Source: a phage
DNA length: 64,000 bases
Strand: one strand, 5' to 3'
Assembly: GCA_032986305.1 (NCBI GenBank)
Contig: GCA_032986305.1_3672.1
Both the position numbers and the translations under genes were made by a program. The notes below the pieces were generated by a model. That model searched no databases. It worked only from the letters and a program-made list of their open reading frames with translations, and was not told where the DNA came from. Shown piece by piece: positions 3,625 through 62,838 of this stretch (positions are counted from its first letter, which is position 1; each line of letters opens with the position of its first letter).

Positions 3625-3880
3625 TCTTGCTAAACCTGTAGAAGCCCACCAGTTTGACGGAAGCTCTTCATCAGTATCTGATCTGCAACGGTGGATTGAT
3701 ACAGGTGTGTTTACATCGTCACCTGTTCGGACCAGAGATCTTCGTCGCATGTGTGAGCTTGTCGAGCCTTTTGGTAACCTTGTCTTGTACCAAGGAGATT
3801 GGCTAGTTGACTTTATGGGAGACTGGTTGGTAATGAGTAAAGAAGAGATGTTTAAAATTTTTAAGGAAGAGGCCGAGTAA
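3611..3880 (+). CDS. hypothetical protein
   Basis: 89 aa ORF; stop overlaps ligase start (TAATG). Confidence 0.4.
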   Translation: MPLFNLAKPVEAHQFDGSSSSVSDLQRWIDTGVFTSSPVRTRDLRRMCELVEPFGNLVLYQGDWLVDFMGDWLVMSKEEMFKIFKEEAE

Positions 3881-5163
3881 TGCATCAAATCAAAACAACA
3901 CTGTACGCACTGAACAAAGATGGCAGCTACCAACAGTGGAAAGTATTCACTGATGGCGAAAAGGTTATCGTAGAGTTTGGCAAGCTTGACGGTAAATTGC
4001 AGTACAAAGAGACGGTATGCACACCTAAGAACGTAGGTCGTGCCAATGAGACTACAGCTGAGCAACAGGCCGAGCTTGAGGCTATCAGCAAGTGGGAAAA
4101 ACAAGTCCGTCTGGGGTATGTTGAAAACATGGAAGATTGCGAGCAGGGTGTTGATCTTTTACCCATGCTGGTGCATGACTACCTGAAGCGTGGCAAGGCA
4201 CTTAAACTACCTTGCTGGATCTTGCGTAAGTTAGATGGCCTTCGTCTGCTTGTTGTTTTCCAAAATGGTGAGCCTAAATTTATTTCCCGTGGTAATAAGT
4301 CCTACCCTATTCAAGGAAAGCTTTTAGAGCAACTTCGTTCTTTCCATTCTACCACTGGGATTAAACAACTTGATGGGGAACTATACATTCATGGTCTTCC
4401 TTTGCAGAAAATAGTGTCTCTTGCTAAACGGTGGCGAACACAGGAAGAGATTCAGGCCGAGATCGATAAAGACTATGAGGCAGATAAAAAACGCCGTCAT
4501 ACCGCAATTAAGGCAGGCTTATCAACATACAAAAACTTCAACAAGGTAGATATTCCTGTCGATGTTGAGCCTGTTCGTGATGATTTGCGTTACGGTGGGT
4601 ACTGTAGCTACGATCTTGAGTATCACATTTTTGATATTCCTAGCGACAAGGTGTGGTGGGATCCAGAAACAGAGTCTGGACGCTGCAAGGATCTTATGGA
4701 TGCAGAGGATACCGTTACCACTCTGATGCTTGACCATATCAAGGTTGTTGACGCAGAGCTTGCGTACACAGTTGATCATTGCGAAGAATCTGTTGGTATA
4801 TTCATGTCCGAAGGATATGAAGGTACTATCATGCGTAATTTCTGCGGTAAATATGAGTATGGTCAGAGAACATCTGAAGCATTGAAATGGAAAAAGTTCA
4901 ACGACGCAGAGGTGAAAGTTATTGACGTTGAGAAAGATAAGAATGATGAAGGTGTTCTTATCTGTGTTGACAAGGAAGGTGTTGTTGTTAAAATGAAGAT
5001 GAAAGGCACGCACGAGGAGCGTAGCTATGACAGGATGCAGGAAATGATCGGCAAGTTTGTCACCTTCAAATATCAAGCAAGGACAGAAGACAACAACTAC
5101 CAATTCCCTGTCGGTATCTGCGTCCGAAATGTTAACCCAGACACTTGGGAGGTGCTGGAATAA
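3880..5163 (+). CDS. ATP-dependent DNA ligase
   Basis: 427 aa; nucleotidyltransferase motif I KLDGLR; EGTIMRN motif; resembles recalled T7 gp1.3 layout. Confidence 0.7.
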   Translation: MHQIKTTLYALNKDGSYQQWKVFTDGEKVIVEFGKLDGKLQYKETVCTPKNVGRANETTAEQQAELEAISKWEKQVRLGYVENMEDCEQGVDLLPMLVHDYLKRGKALKLPCWILRKLDGLRLLVVFQNGEPKFISRGNKSYPIQGKLLEQLRSFHSTTGIKQLDGELYIHGLPLQKIVSLAKRWRTQEEIQAEIDKDYEADKKRRHTAIKAGLSTYKNFNKVDIPVDVEPVRDDLRYGGYCSYDLEYHIFDIPSDKVWWDPETESGRCKDLMDAEDTVTTLMLDHIKVVDAELAYTVDHCEESVGIFMSEGYEGTIMRNFCGKYEYGQRTSEALKWKKFNDAEVKVIDVEKDKNDEGVLICVDKEGVVVKMKMKGTHEERSYDRMQEMIGKFVTFKYQARTEDNNYQFPVGICVRNVNPDTWEVLE

Positions 5164-6066: not shown

Positions 6067-6531
6067 GTGGAAGACGGACGTTTAATGAAGTCTGAACGCA
6101 GGCTTATTGTGCAACTGATCCCAGAAACAGCTTGGTATAATAACCTCCGAAACGCTGTGAAGAAGAGTGAGTGGGATAAGATCCGTAAGAAGTGCTACAG
6201 AGAAGCCAACTACACTTGTGAGGTGTGCGGAGGCAAAGGCAGCAAACACCCTGTGGAGTGTCATGAACTTTACACTTTCGAAGAGGGAGTGATCCGGCTT
6301 GTCGGACTGATAGCGTTGTGCCCGGATTGTCACACATCGGTGCATCCTGGGTTAGCAAATATCCGTGGGAAGTATGCTCAGGCAGTTAGTCAGTTAGCTA
6401 AGGTGAATAAGATCACCAAGGGTATGGCGGAGGCCTATTACCGAGACTGCTTTGCAGAGTGGCGTGAGCTTAGTAAAGTTCCAGAATGGAAGACTGACTT
6501 TTCGTGGATAGAGGGTTACCTTGATGGCTAA
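6067..6531 (+). CDS. HNH-like nuclease domain protein (putative)
   Basis: CEVCGG...H...CPDCH metal-finger pattern; GTG start at 6067 or ATG at 6085. Confidence 0.4.
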   Translation: MEDGRLMKSERRLIVQLIPETAWYNNLRNAVKKSEWDKIRKKCYREANYTCEVCGGKGSKHPVECHELYTFEEGVIRLVGLIALCPDCHTSVHPGLANIRGKYAQAVSQLAKVNKITKGMAEAYYRDCFAEWRELSKVPEWKTDFSWIEGYLDG

Positions 6532-6814
6532 GAAACCTGTAAAAGAGAAATTTGATAAGACAGCTTTTGTATTCGATACACCTTTGGACGATATCATCAG
6601 AGGTATGCAAGACTTGTATCGGAAGGCTGAATCTGAGCAGCTGTCAGAATCAGAGCTTTACTGGTTGGGTTGGTGGGAGCTTAATCTACCTAAAGCTGAA
6701 AGATCTGATCTAAAAACCGTTAAAACGTGTGCCCAAGAAAATGCTGCACTTGGAATTTACCACAAAAGAAAAAGATCAACAAAAAGCTCTCCAAGAAAGA
6801 CTAAAAAGTCTTGA
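6521..6814 (+). CDS. hypothetical protein
   Basis: 97 aa ORF, basic C-terminus. Confidence 0.4.
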   Translation: MMAKKPVKEKFDKTAFVFDTPLDDIIRGMQDLYRKAESEQLSESELYWLGWWELNLPKAERSDLKTVKTCAQENAALGIYHKRKRSTKSSPRKTKKS

Positions 6815-6840
6815 CAAATGAGTCTCTGATCTGATATTAT
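6811..6840 (+). promoter_or_regulatory. sigma70-like promoter
   Basis: TTGACA - 18 nt - TATTAT. Confidence 0.4.
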
Positions 6841-6873: not shown

Positions 6874-7182
6874 ATGCTTAAAATTTTTATTGTTGAAGAT
6901 AAAGATATCGTCCAGTTGTATGCAAATGAGAATCACAAAGGTATGATTCTGAAGAAGGCAAAAAACCTTCATGAAAACACAATTCAACCGGGTGATGTAA
7001 TTAAGATCTGTGGTTATATGATACCAGACTCCTTGATGAAAATAACCCACCACTGGGGGTCTAATCCGTTCCTTTTTGAAAAGTATTGGGATGTTGAGTC
7101 ACTTATTGCAGAGAGTGATGATGCATTTCATTACAGCATCCAACCATCTTGCAGAATAACTAACAGGAGGGGCTTTGAGTAG
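6874..7182 (+). CDS. hypothetical protein
   Basis: 102 aa ORF with RBS AGGAGAA. Confidence 0.45.
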   Translation: MLKIFIVEDKDIVQLYANENHKGMILKKAKNLHENTIQPGDVIKICGYMIPDSLMKITHHWGSNPFLFEKYWDVESLIAESDDAFHYSIQPSCRITNRRGFE

Positions 7183-8314
7183 AGAATATCCACTTATTGA
7201 ATCTGTAGATTGTCTTGCTGATCTTCTCGAACCTGACGCTATAGTTTATTATGACTTCGACCAGGTTGCATATCAAGCTGCGGCAAGTTGTGAAAAAAGG
7301 ACAATTGAGGTAACACACAAAGCCTCCGGACGCAAGAAGATGTTTAAAACACGAACAGAGTTCTGGGGGCGGCAGAAAAACACCGTTGGTGGTTGGTTAA
7401 AAGCTGAGAATACCAACCGTGAAGCCGCATGTAAAAAGGCTGGAAAGGAGTTTATTCCGTGGACACGCGAAGATTTCGATGTCTTGGATATCCAAACCCC
7501 TGATCCTGTAGAGAACTGCTTACACACAATTAAGTGTAAAGCTAATGCAGTTCTTAACTATCTTGGTATTCCGGAAGAGCGATGTGTCGGGGTGTTGGGA
7601 GGCACAGGTAACTTCAGACTAGATCTTCCAATGCCGGAAAGATACAAAGCCAACCGTAACAATACTCTTCGACCACTGCTGCTTGGAGATGCAAGACAGT
7701 ATCTCCAAAAGCAGTATAATGCTCAAGTGATCAACGGTATCGAGGCTGACGACTGGTTAGCTATCCAGCAATTTGAAGGTTGGAACCACTACCAAAAAAC
7801 AGGAAAGTTCAACAAGTTTATTATCTCTATTGATAAGGACCAAAGAACACTACCGGGGCTTGTGTTCGATCCTATGCGAAACGATAAGGGAGATTTTGTA
7901 AGGGAAACCCCTATGCTGATCGATAACGGTATGGGGAACATCTTCATGAAGCCTAATGGAGAGGTTGGTGGTTACGGAATGCTGTTCTTCGGATACCAAA
8001 TGCTGTGTGGTGACTCTGCTGACAATATCAAGCCGTATCAAGGACTTATCGGTAAGGGTAAGTTCGGGGATGCCTCAGCATTCTACCTACTGTCTCAGTG
8101 CAGCACTCCAAAGGAGATGTGGGTGGCTATTATTGATCAGTACAAGAAGTGGTTCCCGAAAGGTGTTGTTAAGTACACTGATTTCAATGGTATTGATCGT
8201 AGAATTTCCGTAGGTCAATGGATGAGTATAATTTTTGACTGTTTGTATATGAAGCGAACATTCAATGATCAGACAAAACTTGTTAACGTTCTTAGAAATG
8301 TTGGAGCAATTTGA
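7175..8314 (+). CDS. 5'-3' exonuclease / flap endonuclease
   Basis: IEADD and GDSADNIKP motifs typical of FEN/Pol I 5' nuclease family. Confidence 0.7.
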   Translation: MSREYPLIESVDCLADLLEPDAIVYYDFDQVAYQAAASCEKRTIEVTHKASGRKKMFKTRTEFWGRQKNTVGGWLKAENTNREAACKKAGKEFIPWTREDFDVLDIQTPDPVENCLHTIKCKANAVLNYLGIPEERCVGVLGGTGNFRLDLPMPERYKANRNNTLRPLLLGDARQYLQKQYNAQVINGIEADDWLAIQQFEGWNHYQKTGKFNKFIISIDKDQRTLPGLVFDPMRNDKGDFVRETPMLIDNGMGNIFMKPNGEVGGYGMLFFGYQMLCGDSADNIKPYQGLIGKGKFGDASAFYLLSQCSTPKEMWVAIIDQYKKWFPKGVVKYTDFNGIDRRISVGQWMSIIFDCLYMKRTFNDQTKLVNVLRNVGAI

Positions 8315-8646
8315 TGACTAAAAATTCTGTAGATAGTGCAATTATGGAAGCTGTTTTTGAGGATGATCATACAACAGGGACCATTAAAACAAAAAATACA
8401 TTTATTGTTGCCACAGGTATGTGGCGGTTGTATGAAGATGACACTATTGCATACATCTTGTATACTGATGATTACGCAGATGATCGTGTATGGTCTGCTG
8501 TTTTAAAAGAGGATTGTGAGCTGATTGAGGGCGAGCGGTTATGCATGTTCACCAGTGTGGAAACAGATGTTAAGCTTTGCTCTCTCGTCTTGTTCAAAGA
8601 TAAGGCTTATGCTCCTGATGAAGGAGAGGAGGATGAGGAAGCATGA
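8311..8646 (+). CDS. hypothetical acidic protein
   Basis: 111 aa, ATGA overlap with upstream gene. Confidence 0.45.
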   Translation: MMTKNSVDSAIMEAVFEDDHTTGTIKTKNTFIVATGMWRLYEDDTIAYILYTDDYADDRVWSAVLKEDCELIEGERLCMFTSVETDVKLCSLVLFKDKAYAPDEGEEDEEA

Positions 8647-9272
8647 GAGAGCGCCTATTATCCATAGACCAGTCGTTGACACACACAGCTTGCGTTGTAT
8701 GGGACGATGGAAAGCCTGTTCATAAGGTTGTGTTACGAACTCAAAGCTCATCTGCAAAAGAGAAGAAACCAGGGACGGTTTCTTTTGCAACAGCTGCTGA
8801 GCGTATTGACTGGATCTGCAAACAGGTCAGATATTATATCCACACGCACGGAGTTGACACCGTGGTTATGGAAGGGCTTTCCTTTGGATCACGCGGAGAT
8901 GCCACACGTGAACTGGCCGGGTTGTTTTACGGTCTTGAAATTATGCTTTGGGATGCCTTAGCTGATTGTGAAAATGACGGCCTGTTTAAGGTCCACACAG
9001 TGACACCAACAACTGCCAAAAAGTTTGCTCGCAGTCATCTTCCTGAAGAACTTGCTTTTGAGGAGAAGAAAAAGCTTGACAAAAAGACAGGTAAAGAGCA
9101 TACTGTGAAGAAACCTGTTACAATGGATAAAAAGTTGATGGTTAAGGCCTGCGAAGTATCTGAACCGGGGTTCCTAGACGGGATCAATTTGGTACAAGGT
9201 AAGGCCGATCTCGCAGATGCTTATTGGATAGGCAGGGCTCATCTGGAGGGATTATCGCAAAGCGTAAAATAA
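8643..9272 (+). CDS. RuvC-like Holliday junction resolvase (putative)
   Basis: N-terminal LSIDQSLTHTACVV and VVMEGLSFGSRGDA resemble RNase H-fold resolvase acidic motifs. Confidence 0.5.
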   Translation: MRERLLSIDQSLTHTACVVWDDGKPVHKVVLRTQSSSAKEKKPGTVSFATAAERIDWICKQVRYYIHTHGVDTVVMEGLSFGSRGDATRELAGLFYGLEIMLWDALADCENDGLFKVHTVTPTTAKKFARSHLPEELAFEEKKKLDKKTGKEHTVKKPVTMDKKLMVKACEVSEPGFLDGINLVQGKADLADAYWIGRAHLEGLSQSVK

Positions 9273-9829
9273 GAAAGAAAGCTGTCAAAGCCCCAGTTCA
9301 TAACGGGTGGTTAAAAGATTCTAAGGACATAGCCAACTTTCGAAAAGAATTGTCAGAGGAGCAGGATGGTCTTGATCCGATCTTGTGCGAGCCACTTCGT
9401 AAGCCTTGTTTAGATCATGATCATCTGACTGGTCGTTGCAGGGGTGTTTTGTCTCAGTGCACTAATACCTTTGAGGGGTATGTGCTTAAATACTGGATGA
9501 AATACTGTAACGAGTATACAGATTGCAGTTTATCAGAGGCGTTGCGCCGGATGGCTGACTATTTGGAGAAAGACTACAGCGACTTCCCGCTCCACAAAAA
9601 CTACAGAGATGATATGACAAAGTTCTTGAGGAGATGCTCTAAAGCTACGATTATTGCACGAGCAGAATCAGATCTCAATCTTGTCATTAATCCGGAGTGC
9701 ACCAAGCATGAGGCTATTGAGTTCTACATGCAGGAGTTTATAAAGAAAACTGAGGAGAGAGATTTCTATGGGGATGAAAAAGGTATTCAATCCTTGCGAC
9801 TCAGTCCTGATCAGGATGAAATACCGTAA
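9224..9829 (+). CDS. endonuclease VII-like HNH protein
   Basis: CLDHDHLTGRCRGVLSQCTN matches recalled T4 endo VII CVDHCHKTGKVRGLLCNRCN; exact start uncertain. Confidence 0.6.
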   Translation: MDRQGSSGGIIAKRKIRKKAVKAPVHNGWLKDSKDIANFRKELSEEQDGLDPILCEPLRKPCLDHDHLTGRCRGVLSQCTNTFEGYVLKYWMKYCNEYTDCSLSEALRRMADYLEKDYSDFPLHKNYRDDMTKFLRRCSKATIIARAESDLNLVINPECTKHEAIEFYMQEFIKKTEERDFYGDEKGIQSLRLSPDQDEIP

Positions 9830-9989
9830 CTGGAAAGGTGTTGTTGCAGATCGCTGCGTTACTGAGCCTAATTTATGGTTTGGCTCTACAGAGTATCATA
9901 AAGAAGAGCAGTGGTTGATGCGTGCCTTCGATGTAGACAAGGGCGAATATCGTGACTTCGCTTTAAAAGACATTCTTCAGTTTTACTAA
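9768..9989 (+). CDS. hypothetical protein
   Basis: 73 aa ORF overlapping end of previous gene. Confidence 0.3.
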   Translation: MGMKKVFNPCDSVLIRMKYRNWKGVVADRCVTEPNLWFGSTEYHKEEQWLMRAFDVDKGEYRDFALKDILQFY

Positions 9990-10001
9990 GGAATCTTAAC
10001 G

Positions 10002-10985
10002 ATGATGACAAAGTTAACTCTTGAGCAAATTTTAACACTAAAGCAACAGGGATACACTAATAGACAAATTGCTCGTGAATTTTTAGGCCGTGAGTCACGT
10101 GAGAGCTGGATCCGACTACAGCTTAAACGTGCACAAGAGAATATGTCAGAGATTGTAGGAGAAGCAACGGAGCGCTTCCTTGAAGAGCACAAAGGTGCTA
10201 AAGTTTGGGTGTATGATACAGAGACATCCCCAACAAACGGCTGGTTCTTTGGGCACTATAAGACCAACATTCAAACCTGTGGTATTGAAGTTATGCCTTA
10301 TATGCTAACTTTCGCAGGTAAGTGGTTAGACAGCCCTAGTGTGGTTGACTGCGCTCTTCCAGATTACAAAATGTGGGATGAGGATATTCACAATGATCTC
10401 GAATTGATTCAGGATTTGTGGTATTATCTGGATAAATGCGATGTCGCAGTAGCCCACAATTCAGGTTTTGACTGCGGGTGGGCCAACCAACGATTTGCAT
10501 TTCACGGGTTGCCTCCAACAAGCCCCTACAAAGATGTTGACACCCTTAAAATGATCAAAAAGGCATTCCGTTTGAATGCAAACACTTTGGAGTATGCATG
10601 CAAATACTTCCAACTGGCCCGACAGAAACTGATTGATCACACATTTGAAATGTGGATCAAGTGTGTCCATGGCGATCTTGAGGCATTTAAACAGATGCGG
10701 GAGTATAATGTTGGTGATATCCTGTCTCTGGAAGGACTGTATTTGCTGGCTCGCCCGTTTGCTAAGCAGCACCCAAACATGTCATTGTACTACCAGGACG
10801 AGGAGCCAAAGGTTCGTTGCCCACGCTGTGGTGGAGAACACTTTCACGAGGAAGAAGCTTTGGCATATACTCAGCTGAGTGCATTTAAAACATACCGCTG
10901 CGAAGGTTGTGGATCTGTTGTTCGTGACCGTAACAACATCCGTACCAGAGAAGAAATGAAAAACACCCTGATTCAGATAATCTAA
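10002..10985 (+). CDS. DEDDy-type 3'-5' exonuclease with N-terminal HTH
   Basis: Exo motifs YDTETS, HNSGFD, YNVGD; C-terminal CxxC...CxxC. Confidence 0.55.
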   Translation: MMTKLTLEQILTLKQQGYTNRQIAREFLGRESRESWIRLQLKRAQENMSEIVGEATERFLEEHKGAKVWVYDTETSPTNGWFFGHYKTNIQTCGIEVMPYMLTFAGKWLDSPSVVDCALPDYKMWDEDIHNDLELIQDLWYYLDKCDVAVAHNSGFDCGWANQRFAFHGLPPTSPYKDVDTLKMIKKAFRLNANTLEYACKYFQLARQKLIDHTFEMWIKCVHGDLEAFKQMREYNVGDILSLEGLYLLARPFAKQHPNMSLYYQDEEPKVRCPRCGGEHFHEEEALAYTQLSAFKTYRCEGCGSVVRDRNNIRTREEMKNTLIQII

Positions 10986-10992
10986 CAATTAT

Positions 10993-11022
10993 AGGGAGGC
11001 TTGCGCCTCCCTTTTCCTTTTG
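10993..11022 (+). terminator. intrinsic terminator
   Basis: GGGAGGC-ttgc-GCCTCCC then TTTTCCTTTT. Confidence 0.55.
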
Positions 11023-59784: not shown

Positions 59785-60138
59785 TTAGTGACAATCACCC
59801 CAGTTACGACCACACAAGTATTCACCTGTGATCTGGAACGGGACTCCCATCATTTTAGAAGCTTGCCAGAAGCAATGCACCACCATTTCACCCACAGGGC
59901 TCCAGATAAGTTCAAGCTTTCCGTCATCGTTCAGGATAGGATCGTACACCGTGTTTCCGTCTCTGTCAACCACCTCGTTTCCGTTTTCATCCTTGCGTGC
60001 CTTTTTGTACTTATGACCGTCGAACACATGAAGTTTGGCTTCCTGCTCTGCCTTAAATGCTTCCAGTTCTTCAATTGTGTCGAAGGTGTACACAGTCTTA
60101 TACTTAGGTGTGTCAGGGACCTGAAGTTGGTACTCATC
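59785..60138 (-). CDS. DNA polymerase (family A, T7 gp5-like), exon 2
   Basis: Begins at motif C (H)DEYQLQV; ends ...GRNWGDCH resembling recalled T7 gp5 C-terminus GPNWAICH. Confidence 0.6.
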   Translation of the reverse strand, partial: DEYQLQVPDTPKYKTVYTFDTIEELEAFKAEQEAKLHVFDGHKYKKARKDENGNEVVDRDGNTVYDPILNDDGKLELIWSPVGEMVVHCFWQASKMMGVPFQITGEYLCGRNWGDCH

Positions 60139-60414
60139 CAATAGTTCAGGTAGGTCGTTAAGCTACCCCGCACCATTACGTGCATAGCCATACGTTTTCA
60201 CGTAGGATCGGACCATCTCATATTCCTATGATAAGCAACCACAGGAATCCTCCCATTTCGACCGCACTTGCTGGTCTACTTCCTTTCGGAATGGCCTCTG
60301 AGCGTTCGCTCTTTTGAGCGCTTCGTTGCGGATTACCTTGCCATAAGGTTTAGGCTTCCCGCAGTTAAAGAGGTTATTCGACATAGATTACTCTATGAAG
60401 CCACAATGTTATTT
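60139..60414 (-). mobile_element. group I-type intron in DNA polymerase gene (ORF-less, about 276 nt)
   Basis: Separates ...IIYYH from DEYQLQV at motif C; exon 1 ends in U, intron ends in G. Confidence 0.5.
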
Positions 60415-62838
60415 ATGGTAATAAATAATACGACGAACACCTTCATCGTACCACCCACGCTTCACCATTTGGTGGTGCATGAGTATCCCAACTAAGTCAC
60501 ACAGCGATGCACCACCATTCTGTTGGTATGCATTAAGTAAAGAGTGTTTAGATCGGGTCCAGATGGCATGACCATCAAAAGAGTAGATAAACTTCTTACC
60601 CGTTGCTTCCCAGAATTTCTCCAGATCCTCTTTACGCCCCTTAAGACCAGGGTTGGCATCCCAAAGTGCATCGATTACCCTTTGTCCCAACTCTGGAGAG
60701 ATGTCCAGCATATCTGCAACTTTATCTTTTTGTGCCCCGTACATAACCCCATACGTGATAGGTTTACCGTCGTTACGGGACACCTCTCTGCCTGCTACTT
60801 TTGTATATGCCTCAGCATTGTTTTGGTGTGCGTCTCCGTTACTTACAACATCGTAATACAGGCCGTTGTCGAACTCAAAGGCACCCCAAGCCCCGATAAG
60901 CTGCTCTAAGTTGGACCCGTCGATACCGATCTCAAAGTATCCTGGAGGAACACCCCACAAGCTACGCATCTCTTTACCCATAACCACTTTAGGAGAGGGT
61001 TTAGGCATGTTTGCACAAATACTGTGTTTCTGTCTGGAAGTGTTTGTTAATCCAGAGCTTTTAGCAGGAAGCTTATGGTCAATCTTCAAGCGTGGGTGAT
61101 TAAGAAGACCAGTATCAACCTTATCCTCCTTGATCGGATCAAGGACCGATCTGCGGTTTCGCAATGATAACCACAAGACGATATCTTTAGCCATCTCTCC
61201 GTTCAATTTTTCAAGATTCGGACATAGGTGTCCAAACGTATCTTTCAGTTGCGGAGAAGTAATAAGTGCCCTAGCTTTTCTACGTATTTTCCTGAATACT
61301 TCCTTTTTAATCCTTTCGGAGTTAGGAAAGCTTCGGAACTTGTGCACAGTTGTCTGGAACTTAGCATCAGTTTTGTTCCAGAAGTTGATAATTAGGTCAC
61401 AATACTCTGACTCCAAAAGCTCGTCCATATATGCATATACTCGTGCATCAACATCTGCATCAGGTAAAGCTTTCTTCTTGCTGTCTTTAGTTACATCCTT
61501 AGTTCTCCACATTGTCGGAAGCCAGCCAGCACTGATCAGGTATCGCTTAATGTCGTCCTGGTTGCTGATTTTCATAGGTATCTTGCAGTCCGGCATTCGC
61601 TTCTGCTGTAGATCACTTATTGCCTGATCCATCAACTCTTTAGGTAAAGGGTGTGGTGTGGAAGTGCCCTTAATATAGCCTCTCAAGAAATCAGCCATCT
61701 TATCGGGGTCTTTGCATCCCATCTCTTCACACCATTTTATCCCCATCTTGCTGACATCTCCTGTAGAGGTAAATGCTCTCTTAGGCGGGGCTTTGAACTC
61801 TAAAGCGCTCATGTCTACAGGATATCCAAGCTTATCTTTTAACCATTTCCAACCATTATTAGAGATTGTCCCGTCTTGGTTAAACGGCTTTTCAGGGAAC
61901 TTGGGCCGCTGAGACATTGACAGCTCTTTTAAAGGCAGTTGTGGTTCAACACGATCAGCGATTTCTTTCATCCACGCATCGCAACGGTCACGTAAAGCAA
62001 TAGCTCCATCTATGTCGAAATATACGCCCTGACGGGCCTGCAGCTCCATCAGGAAGTGCTGCAGCATACCTCGGCGCAATGCGTTCTTCCAGGTGATCTT
62101 CTTGAACCCTTTTGGCTTCTCTTTGGCAGGATCGTACATAAAGTTCTGCATGTCAGATTTGCCGTAGAATACACCTTTTGATTCCGCTACCAGCTCTTTC
62201 CAGAGCAACTCCTGGATGATAACGTCCTCGAATACACGATCCACATACTTCCACAACGGAAGATCGCGCCAGTCATCAATTTGAACTTTCTGGTTACCAA
62301 GGGCGTAGCCCCATGCCATAAGGCCGTGAGGACCAACAGGCTGCATTTTCTTAGTAACCGGGTTGAATACAGCGTCCGGACAACCTTTTGGTAAAGGGCG
62401 ATCAGGCCACAAGATTCGGCTCATCGCCAACGTATCAAACAGGTTAACCTGGTGGTCGTTGATAGTCCCCATACATTTAGGATCACGGAACATATCAAAA
62501 TGAATACCGGATAATCTCTCCATCAGCATAAAGTCATAACTATAGCAGTTATGGCAGTTCAAAGCTGTTGGTGACCAGTCGGAATTGCCTGTAAGCCAAC
62601 CTTCCAACTCCGAAAAATCTGCTATGCGAACTTCAAAATCTTTATAAAGAGCTTTCTTTGCCAGAATAAAGTTCTTAGCCTTCTCTATATCCTCCTCGGA
62701 GTAGTGTGTGCGGTCATTTAGAGGGAGGAACAGCATAAAACGGTTCTTATTCAGCTCTTTAAACAGGCCGCAGTGATAATAAAGATCTGGGTCTTCCAAA
62801 AGCCCGGAGGCCTCAAAATCGAAGCTATACATGCTCAT
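60415..62838 (-). CDS. DNA polymerase (family A, T7 gp5-like), exon 1
   Basis: N-terminal exo FDFEASGLLEDPDLYYHCG like T7 VSDIEANALLESVTKFHCG; motif A GIDGSNLEQL; motif B RNDGKPITYGVMYG. Confidence 0.8.

Follow-up and report, generated by a model that had tools for sequence, protein, structure and literature searches.

The gene block at 7175−10985 on the plus strand of the window, the whole 64,000-nt stretch of phage DNA analysed here, is a DNA-processing nuclease gene block of an rV5-like (Vequintavirus) myovirus of E. coli. We consider it probable that this block is a conserved Vequintavirus nuclease operon supplying four active nucleases for DNA processing, of which the two resolvases would clear junctions for packaging. 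The block matched 121 phage records, mostly Vequintavirus, at 98−99% nucleotide identity; it has been sequenced before, and some public records name all four nucleases. GenBank labels already in use are 'putative exodeoxyribonuclease', 'Holliday junction resolvase', 'recombination endonuclease VII' and 'putative DNA polymerase/exonuclease', in addition to '5'-exonuclease' and 'DnaQ-like 3'-5' exonuclease', and the rV5 genome paper mentions, among these proteins, solely an 'exo-deoxyribonuclease' (PMC3606486). As a whole, the block is known and ordinary.

Four nuclease families in the block

The original prediction placed a flap endonuclease, a RuvC-like resolvase, an endonuclease VII (EndoVII)-like HNH protein and a DEDDy exonuclease, of different folds, in tandem in this interval. 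Four nuclease ORFs lie at exactly these positions, and profile searches and alignments upheld all four family assignments. They lie on the plus strand in the order given there, but the genes are not strictly adjacent, since two small ORFs (8311−8646 and 9768−9989) are interspersed among them. The RNase H-like fold (Pfam clan CL0219, SCOP c.55.3) is common to RuvC and DnaQ/PolB-type exonucleases, so the block holds four families but only three folds. The catalytic residues are preserved in all four nucleases, as judged from family alignments of 28−31 sequences. Family membership, intact active sites and the folds of the RuvC and FEN proteins are thereby established, as are the operon-like packing and deep synteny described below.

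The FEN-family 5' nuclease/5'-3' exonuclease (379 a.a.; 7175−8314, plus strand) matched phrog_107, 'exonuclease', in the PHROG profile search (E=2.8e-71). The protein itself gave no direct Pfam or PDB sequence match; homologues at 32−36% identity bear PF02739/PF01367. Residues D27, D29, K158, R161, E190, D192, D220, D222, D280 and D283 are invariant in the alignment, and the AlphaFold model (pLDDT 94.5) had its best predicted structural matches, by Foldseek, in ExoIX (3zdc) and the T5 FEN (1exn/5hp4), with a probability of 1.00. A large insertion is located after the first acidic cluster and before the YKxxR motif/second acidic cluster.

The RuvC-family junction resolvase (209 a.a.; 8643−9272, plus strand) matched phrog_159 (E=5e-39); the window protein gave no direct Pfam match, and its homologues P0100 and P0102 bear PF02075. 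Within the catalytic tetrad D9/E77/D189/D192, E77 is invariant and the three aspartates are present in at least 90% of the aligned sequences. The top Foldseek matches of the AlphaFold model (pLDDT 92.5) were the Thermus and Deinococcus RuvC proteins (target TM-score 0.75−0.79), and the RuvC of phage bIL67 was also matched. Relative to the 157−161 a.a. homologues in the alignment, the protein carries an insertion of ~35 residues with a beta-hairpin at 139−158. GenBank names for this protein vary among 'RNaseH', 'hypothetical' and 'Holliday junction resolvase'.

The EndoVII-family nuclease (201 a.a.; 9224−9829, plus strand) scored 31.6 bits against PF02945 (cut-off 23.6), matched phrog_423 and phrog_29095, and aligned with chain residues 37−147 of T4 EndoVII (1e7d, E=3e-4). 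Its D64, H65, H67, N81 and E84 are invariant and correspond to D40, H41, H43, N62 and E65 of T4, whereas the Cys4 zinc site of the T4 enzyme is absent from the alignment (C58 is replaced by S77 and C61 by T80, with no conserved CxxC), so the stability and dimer architecture may differ from those of T4 EndoVII. The protein bears a basic N-terminal extension, and its start codon is uncertain, with the GenBank records split between 9224 and 9350.

The stand-alone DEDDy 3'-5' exonuclease (327 a.a.; 10002−10985, plus strand) matched phrog_403 (E=4.6e-110) and consists of an HTH-like N-terminal segment, a PolB-exo/RNase_H_2-type core and a C-terminal Cys4 zinc ribbon. Both the catalytic residues (D72, E74, D157, Y235 and D239) and the zinc-ribbon cysteines (C273, C276, C300 and C303) are invariant. 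PF13482 was matched by 23 of 30 family members, and the family comprises 3445 cluster representatives in a library of 1.8 billion proteins.

Operon-like packing and neighbouring genes

Seven genes are tightly packed or overlap one another by 4 nt to 62 nt. The first encodes a 102 a.a. protein (6874−7182, plus strand; phrog_14449, E=9e-72), is preceded by a good ribosome-binding site (aggag) and extends 8 nt into the FEN gene; the 'transposase' label of phrog_14449 is without support. The 111 a.a. ORF at 8311−8646 (plus strand; phrog_7583, E=1.6e-56) overlaps both neighbours by 4 nt and ends in the acidic tail EGEEDEEA. Homologues were found by tblastn at the equivalent position in 12 IMG/VR loci, and Cronobacter phage CR3 has there an ORF of equal length without detectable similarity. 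Between the EndoVII and exonuclease genes, the 73 a.a. ORF at 9768−9989 (plus strand; phrog_3715, E=2.6e-26) shows weak WYL/SH3-like similarity (Pfam WYL_2, sub-threshold, E=0.02) and has a 43% identical counterpart at the equivalent position in CR3, as well as in many IMG/VR loci.

A sigma-70-like promoter candidate at 6811−6840 (plus strand; TTGACA, 18 nt spacer, TATTAT, with a TG extension) is the best match within 5000−13000 at 11 of 12 positions; it is a consensus match only, and the overall count of promoter-like matches did not exceed that in shuffled sequence. An intrinsic-terminator-like hairpin (10993−11012, plus strand; 8 bp stem with 6 G-C pairs and a T-rich tail) starts 8 nt past the exonuclease stop codon and is likely to mark the operon end. 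At the corresponding place in CR3, 4 nt past the stop codon of the orthologue, lies a different hairpin (10045−10066 of locus L009). Judged by these signals and the packing, the block looks like a single operon running from the promoter-like site near 6811 to the hairpin.

Just upstream of the block and of the candidate promoter lies a fifth nuclease gene, encoding a 154 a.a. HNH endonuclease (6067−6531, plus strand; phrog_5200, E=4.5e-72); a 51% identical copy adjoins the FEN gene in CR3, and ~20 IMG/VR loci share this arrangement. Further upstream, an ATP-dependent DNA ligase of 427 a.a. is encoded at 3880−5163 (plus strand; PF01068 and PF14743; phrog_114, E=3e-83). The DNA polymerase of this phage is a T7-like family A enzyme, in which we saw no match to a 5'-nuclease domain.

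Conservation of the arrangement and of the resolvase pair

The order FEN, RuvC, EndoVII was found in 24 of the 40 loci with a RuvC homologue, and 22 of these 24 have the exonuclease as well. The four-gene order persists down to ~30% protein identity across several genera, including Cronobacter phage CR3, Vibrio phage S4-7 and Aeromonas phage phiA009 (29−55% identity). Because the order recurs in this way, the arrangement is, on comparative sequence grounds, not due to chance. The alternative, that unrelated nuclease genes (mobile HNH genes of the homing type among them) came together by chance and form no functional unit, could draw on the presence of mobile endonucleases in this group, namely the HNH gene at 6067−6531 and a homing endonuclease inside a DNA polymerase intron of a relative. 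However, it is hardly credible in view of the conserved order and strand, the overlapping or abutting genes, the terminator found past the final gene in each of two divergent lineages, and the match of the EndoVII protein to a resolvase, T4 gp49, past the HNH core.

Having two resolvase candidates had been called unusual, and loss of catalytic residues from one of them would have refuted the prediction; both retain their full sets, so that RuvC and EndoVII alike appear catalytically competent from their sequences. In jumbo phages, EndoVII-like and RuvC-like resolvases are 'nearly complementary' in distribution (PMC7824862), which makes the pairing uncommon by that comparison, but it is fixed and annotated across the whole phage lineage; from the sequences compared, it is a lineage trait and no anomaly of this genome. 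That the pair is conserved contrary to the jumbo-phage pattern is a modest but real curiosity. Since the two have stayed neighbours while the phages diverged deeply, they most likely are not redundant and act on different substrates or at different times. We regard it as unlikely that they are redundant, one being a backup, for example in case a host or competitor inhibits one class: phage resolvases of either class have been called promiscuous in debranching DNA (PMC3864405), jumbo phages usually have one class only, and more distant relatives have FEN and RuvC with EndoVII undetected (L020, L031, L032 and L041−L043), indicating that RuvC alone can suffice in some phages, but dispensability is hard to reconcile with invariant catalytic residues and relative position kept in both at ~30% identity. 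Still less probable, in our estimate, is that one of them mainly does other work, the EndoVII-like protein as a nicking, mismatch or host-DNA nuclease, or the RuvC-like protein in RNase H-like primer removal. The lost zinc site and gained basic extension of the former, and the hairpin insertion and varied naming of the latter (several records say 'RNaseH'), would fit such a role, whereas the RuvC model best matches true RuvC dimers, one of them in complex with a Holliday junction, rather than RNase H, the EndoVII match to gp49 reaches chain residue 147, and the operon already supplies a dedicated primer-removal FEN.

Proposed role in replication and packaging

The biochemical activities, the way the nucleases share the work and the link to packaging are all inferred, as follows. 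The seven genes would be transcribed together from the promoter-like site to the hairpin. Like T4 RNase H, T5 D15 and T7 gp6, FEN would most likely strip away 5' flaps and RNA primers; the phage ligase, whose gene lies 2 kb upstream and which is likely the functional partner of FEN in nick sealing, would then seal the Okazaki fragments. The analogy of bIL67 RuvC and T4 gp49 suggests that RuvC and EndoVII would jointly free replicating concatemers of four-way and branched junctions, either ahead of headful packaging or while it proceeds. The DEDDy exonuclease would trim 3' ends. In the rV5 paper, related genomes are described as circularly permuted (PMC3606486), which fits headful packaging of concatemers.

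The block had also been proposed as a recombination-dependent replication module. The annotation of a closely related genome lists no phage recombinase, SSB or mediator, and no recombinase lies within the cluster, so this part of the original prediction stays conjectural. Junctions may arise through host RecA, template switching or a phage protein not yet recognised. By analogy, FEN together with the ligase more plausibly points to Okazaki-fragment/lagging-strand maturation.

Comparison with known systems

The window FEN shares every conserved acidic cluster with the family of T5 D15, E. coli ExoIX, T4 RNase H and T7 gp6, and has the YKxxR and GDxxDN H3TH-type motifs of 5' nucleases (PF02739/PF01367). 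ExoIX and T5 flap endonuclease-type 5' nucleases are the sole confident structural matches of its model, with modest TM-scores against bacterial and phage 5' nucleases (query-normalised 0.34−0.41), and it is ~100 residues longer than the T5 D15/ExoIX family, chiefly through the one insertion.

The modelled RuvC shares the fold of the RuvC proteins of E. coli (1hjr), Thermus (4ld0), Deinococcus (7xhj) and Lactococcus phage bIL67 (4ktw), with target TM-scores of 0.72−0.79, and the placement of the D-E-D-D tetrad (ends of strands 1 and 4, and the C-terminal helix with its DxxDA motif). It differs from them in its 11−17% identity, its ~50 additional residues, the beta-hairpin insertion and the lack of a RuvA or RuvB partner. 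T4 gp49 (1e7d, 1en7, 2qnc) shares PF02945 membership with the window EndoVII at ~25% identity, and the similarity extends beyond the HNH core into the C-terminal helical region; the predicted shared role is the debranching of DNA prior to packaging. The window protein differs in the missing zinc-binding cysteines, the basic extension and the accompanying RuvC-type enzyme, which T4, to our knowledge, does not have.

The DEDDy exonuclease shares the Exo I, II and III motifs, with a Tyr in Exo III, with PolB-exo-like/RNase_H_2 (PF13482) phage exonucleases, and its length and zinc ribbon with thousands of phage homologues in PHROG 403. The name of that group, 'DNA polymerase exonuclease subunit', implies a proofreading subunit; the polymerase of this phage appears to keep an exonuclease segment of its own at the N-terminus, where an FDFEA motif resembles Exo I, so a proofreading role for the stand-alone protein is unproven.

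Vequintavirus annotations place the EndoVII start codon differently (201 versus 159 a.a.) and do not agree on whether the 209 a.a. protein is named. The blocks of Escherichia phages rV5, Mangalyan, AlexBoehm/Bas56, LL12 and MiataMamis themselves are 98−99% identical to the window in nucleotide sequence across 3.8 kb, with identical gene content and order and no substantive difference.

A conserved nuclease block in Vequintavirus genomes

The 3.8-kb block at 7175-10985 (+) matches 121 phage records along its entire length with 98-99% identity; nearly all are from Escherichia phages that belong to the genus Vequintavirus (rV5-like myoviruses, ~136 kb). Six plus-strand ORFs occupy it: a predicted FEN-family 5' nuclease (FEN; 379 a.a., 7175-8314), a 111-a.a. 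ORF (8311-8646) with the acidic C-terminal tail EGEEDEEA, a predicted RuvC-family resolvase (RuvC; 209 a.a., 8643-9272), a predicted endonuclease VII-family nuclease (EndoVII; 201 a.a., 9224-9829), a 73-a.a. ORF (9768-9989) and a predicted DEDDy 3'-5' exonuclease (DEDDy; 327 a.a., 10002-10985). The 111- and 73-a.a. ORFs have no functional assignment. The original prediction of four nucleases in tandem located all four large ORFs at exactly these coordinates, but these two small ORFs intervene. Its claim of four different folds holds at the level of families: an RNase H-like fold is common to RuvC and the DnaQ/PolB-type exonucleases (Pfam clan CL0219, SCOP c.55.3), and the cluster therefore comprises four nuclease families in three folds, with RuvC and DEDDy both RNase H-like.

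Both the sequence and its functional labels can already be found in public databases, and every protein can be recognised as belonging to a family already described. The labels in the close relative Mangalyan are 'putative exodeoxyribonuclease', 'Holliday junction resolvase', 'recombination endonuclease VII' and 'putative DNA polymerase/exonuclease', and those in another, AlexBoehm/Bas56, include 'putative 5'-exonuclease', 'packaging and recombination endonuclease' and 'DnaQ-like 3'-5' exonuclease'. Twenty 'Campylobacter phage' records in GenBank (MG0656xx, host C. jejuni), which carry no annotation, are ~98% identical to the E. coli rV5-like phages over this block; their C. jejuni host assignment looks doubtful.

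The block sits in the DNA-metabolism arm of the genome, with an RNA ligase, a Sir2-like protein, an ATP-dependent DNA ligase (3880-5163), an endolysin and an HNH endonuclease (6067-6531) upstream, and an adenine methyltransferase, a dNMP kinase, thymidylate synthase and ribonucleotide reductases downstream. The HNH endonuclease, a fifth nuclease gene that adjoins the FEN gene just upstream of the block, is called 'putative homing endonuclease' in other annotations; it recurs at the same position, with ~50% identity, in the Cronobacter phage CR3 and ~20 IMG/VR loci, a placement steadier than a mobile homing gene would predict. Upstream of FEN, the small ORFs at 6874-7182 and 6521-6814 are called 'transposase' or 'transposase-like' in PHROGs or GenBank; no Pfam domain backs these names, which therefore look unfounded. 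As for the 111-a.a. ORF, a counterpart of equal length with an acidic end occupies the same position in CR3, and no homologue was detectable in the GenBank relatives CR3, S4-7 (a Vibrio phage) and phiA009 (an Aeromonas phage).

FEN and RuvC are assigned through distant homologues and structural models

Neither FEN nor RuvC could be assigned directly: FEN had no match in Pfam, NCBIfam or PDB sequence searches, and RuvC none in Pfam or PDB. The family link of FEN is transitive. It matches PHROG 107 'exonuclease' (E=2.8e-71), and its homologues at 32-36% identity (P0059-P0070) bear PF02739 and PF01367. In an alignment of 31 sequences, D27, D29, Y157, K158, R161, E190, D192, D220, D222, D280 and D283 were invariant, so that the carboxylate clusters for two metal sites and the basic YKxxR motif are both present; D280 and D283 lie within a GDxxDN motif (GDSADNIKP). 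The AlphaFold model built on this alignment (pLDDT 94.5) retrieved only E. coli ExoIX and T5 flap endonuclease as confident Foldseek matches in the PDB (probability 1.00, E=1e-5 to 8e-5), with modest TM-scores because the window protein carries ~100 extra residues. The model, these matches and the GDSADNIKP sequence point to a PIN-like 5' nuclease fold with an H3TH region, and FEN is thus a FEN-family protein with predicted 5' nuclease activity.

The family link of RuvC is likewise transitive: the protein belongs to PHROG 159, whereas the Pfam domain PF02075 is borne by its distant homologues P0100 and P0102. The Asp-Glu-Asp/His-Asp catalytic tetrad is represented by E77, invariant, and by D9, D189 and D192, each shared by at least 90% of the 30 aligned sequences. 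In the structural model (pLDDT 92.5), D9 ends strand 1, E77 ends strand 4 and D189/D192 lie in the last helix, the places where the RuvC tetrad sits. The best 11 Foldseek matches were bacterial RuvC proteins (Thermus, Deinococcus, Pseudomonas and E. coli; target TM-score up to 0.79), and RuvC of phage bIL67 and yeast Ydc2 were matched too, indicating an RNase H-like fold of the RuvC type. A β-hairpin insertion (residues 139-158) distinguishes the window protein from the homologues of 157-161 a.a. in the alignment, which do not have it. On alignment and model, the protein is a RuvC-family resolvase for which junction cleavage is predicted.

EndoVII retains the active site but appears to have lost the zinc site

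EndoVII was matched directly by PF02945 (31.6 bits, E=1.5e-7, exceeding the gathering score of 23.6 bits) and by T4 endonuclease VII (PDB 1e7d, E=3.3e-4). The latter match covers chain residues 37-147, a stretch of sequence similarity that spans the active site and the C-terminal helical part up to T4 residue 147. D64, H65, H67, N81 and E84, which align to T4 D40, H41, H43, N62 and E65, were invariant in 28 sequences, as would befit a β-β-α-metal active site. EndoVII is therefore a member of the T4 endonuclease VII family, with predicted nuclease activity.

In contrast to the active site, the structural Cys4 zinc site of the T4 type was not found in this homologue. The T4 zinc ligands C58 and C61 are replaced by S77 and T80 in the HMMER alignment to 1e7d. 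For the other two T4 zinc cysteines, C23 and C26, no conserved CxxC occurs upstream in the family, and Cys55, Cys72 and Cys79 of the window protein vary among homologues. The clade of the window protein thus appears, from these alignments, to be a zinc-less form of EndoVII that keeps its catalytic residues.

The start codon of EndoVII is uncertain. Its ORF opens in the -1 frame, 49 nt ahead of the RuvC stop codon; its TTG at 9224 lacks a ribosome-binding site, and within the ORF, at 9245-9250, the sequence reads GGAGGG. GenBank records are split between starts at 9224 (201 a.a.) and 9350 (159 a.a.), and a basic N-terminal extension conserved in several homologues favours the long form. We also considered, and rejected, a RuvC-EndoVII fusion produced by programmed -1 frameshifting; there is no slippery heptamer in 9224-9272, and in CR3 a separate 180-a.a. 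gene lies between the two, which also argues against it.

The exonuclease and the DNA polymerase

DEDDy matches PHROG 403 (E=4.6e-110), labelled 'polymerase exonuclease subunit', and its family counts 3445 cluster representatives in a library of 1.8 billion proteins. Among 30 sequences, D72, E74, D157, Y235 and D239 were invariant and H152, N153 and F156 were conserved in at least 90%, which places the Exo I (DxE), Exo II (NxxxFD) and Exo III (YxxxD) motifs; the four cysteines of a C-terminal zinc ribbon were also invariant. The RNase_T match of the window protein falls just short of the cut-off (23.0 vs 24 bits), PF13482 (RNase_H_2) is matched by 23 of the 30 family members (E<=1e-3), and some members also match PolB-type exonuclease families.

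If the T7-like family A DNA polymerase encoded in the window (exon 1, 60409-62838, -) had lost its own proofreading, this would account for a stand-alone exonuclease that serves the polymerase, as the PHROG label of DEDDy implies. The N-terminal 260 residues of this polymerase align colinearly with the exonuclease domain of T7 polymerase, though too weakly (E=0.28) to establish such a loss, and keep an Exo I-like FDFEA motif; a proofreading role for DEDDy is accordingly unproven. The polymerase gene itself (59785-62838, -) is split inside motif C: exon 1 ends with ...IIYYH (then K and a stop) at 60409, and the frame resumes with DEYQLQV... in the ORF at 59785-60141. A group I intron was detected in the gap, at 60189-60424 (-) (Rfam RF00028, 64.7 bits with a gathering threshold of 50, E=4e-16). 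It contains no homing endonuclease, whereas the AlexBoehm annotation joins the same gene from two pieces and places a homing endonuclease within it.

Candidate operon signals

The genes of the block abut or overlap by 4 to 62 nt. The best σ70-like site in 8 kb, at 6811-6840, agrees at 11 of 12 positions and has a TG extension; it precedes the small gene at 6874. Since promoter-like matches overall were not commoner than in shuffled sequence, it stays a candidate only. At the other end, a strong hairpin with a T-rich tail (10993-11012) begins 8 nt past the exonuclease stop codon. In CR3, whose proteins are 39-55% identical, a different hairpin lies 4 nt after the stop codon of the orthologue, and this conserved position supports a real terminator at 10993-11012. 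Because the hairpin covers the TTG at 11001, the earliest start codon that the downstream methyltransferase ORF could use, translation of that gene probably begins further downstream, as annotated in AlexBoehm.

The dual-resolvase arrangement is deeply conserved

The order FEN, RuvC, EndoVII, DEDDy recurs at 29-55% identity in CR3 (Certrevirus), S4-7 and phiA009 (Plateaulakevirus). Profiles built from the four nuclease alignments were then run against 40 loci: these three from GenBank and 37 from IMG/VR, each of the latter with a gene for a RuvC homologue. FEN, RuvC and EndoVII occurred in this order in 24 loci, 22 of which had the exonuclease downstream. Six loci (L020, L031, L032 and L041-L043) had FEN and RuvC with EndoVII not detected, eight had RuvC only, one was interrupted by a contig end (L023) and one was rearranged (L017). 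This pattern points to the FEN-RuvC pair as the older core; EndoVII is a later addition in the lineage of Vequintavirinae and their Vibrio and Aeromonas relatives, and has been kept since.

In jumbo phages, RuvC-type and EndoVII-type resolvases reportedly exclude each other almost completely (PMC7824862), so that their co-occurrence is uncommon. The original view that two resolvase candidates are unusual is borne out in this sense, though within this well-sampled lineage the dual-resolvase state is fixed and has already been annotated. Mapping of the active sites by alignment revealed no resolvase candidate lacking catalytic residues, and both look competent. Our literature search found no paper discussing the co-occurrence of RuvC and EndoVII in Vequintavirus, and the rV5 paper does not discuss the cluster (PMC3606486).

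Possible roles of the four nucleases

The polymerase is of family A, and its matches included no 5'-nuclease domain. A separate flap endonuclease and a ligase, as in T4, T5 and T7, would be the expected route for primer removal and nick sealing; FEN and the ligase encoded 2 kb upstream would then remove primers and seal nicks, respectively. For the two resolvases, the starting point is that genomes related to rV5 are circularly permuted (PMC3606486), which implies headful packaging from concatemers that need debranching. T4 EndoVII and phage RuvC enzymes remove branches in their own systems (PMC3864405), and RuvC and EndoVII would, by analogy, free the concatemers of branches for headful packaging.

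The original prediction had placed the cluster in a module for recombination-dependent replication and packaging resolution. Its four family assignments stand, and recombination-dependent replication is possible but unsupported by gene content: no recombinase, mediator or SSB is annotated in the complete genome of the close relative AlexBoehm, a scan of larger unannotated ORFs gave no match to any of the three, and a 408-a.a. ORF near the polymerase had no Pfam match and only a PHROG of unknown function. Both resolvases have kept their active sites while their lineages diverged deeply, which argues against simple redundancy; they may differ in substrate, timing or partner. We tentatively suggest, at somewhat less than an even chance, that the RuvC-type and the zinc-less EndoVII-type enzymes have distinct, non-redundant jobs. 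The work may be divided, for example, between Holliday-junction resolution in replication restart or recombination and portal- or terminase-coupled debranching in headful packaging, or one of the two enzymes may have been re-purposed against host defences.

These results have little significance beyond annotation quality. They provide firm names and active-site maps for four genes that are 'hypothetical' in many records of rV5-like phages, which are widely used in phage therapy and in the biocontrol of E. coli O157. Some modest novelty may lie in three points: the deep conservation of the dual-resolvase operon, the older FEN-RuvC core and the loss of the zinc site in the EndoVII clade of the window protein. 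If the two resolvases do have distinct jobs, the question of why a virus needs two junction resolvases could be put to a natural and genetically tractable system, the Vequintavirinae with their relatives in Vibrio and Aeromonas. The zinc site is thought to be structurally essential in T4 endonuclease VII; the clade described here, if truly zinc-less, would show the same fold stabilised without structural zinc.
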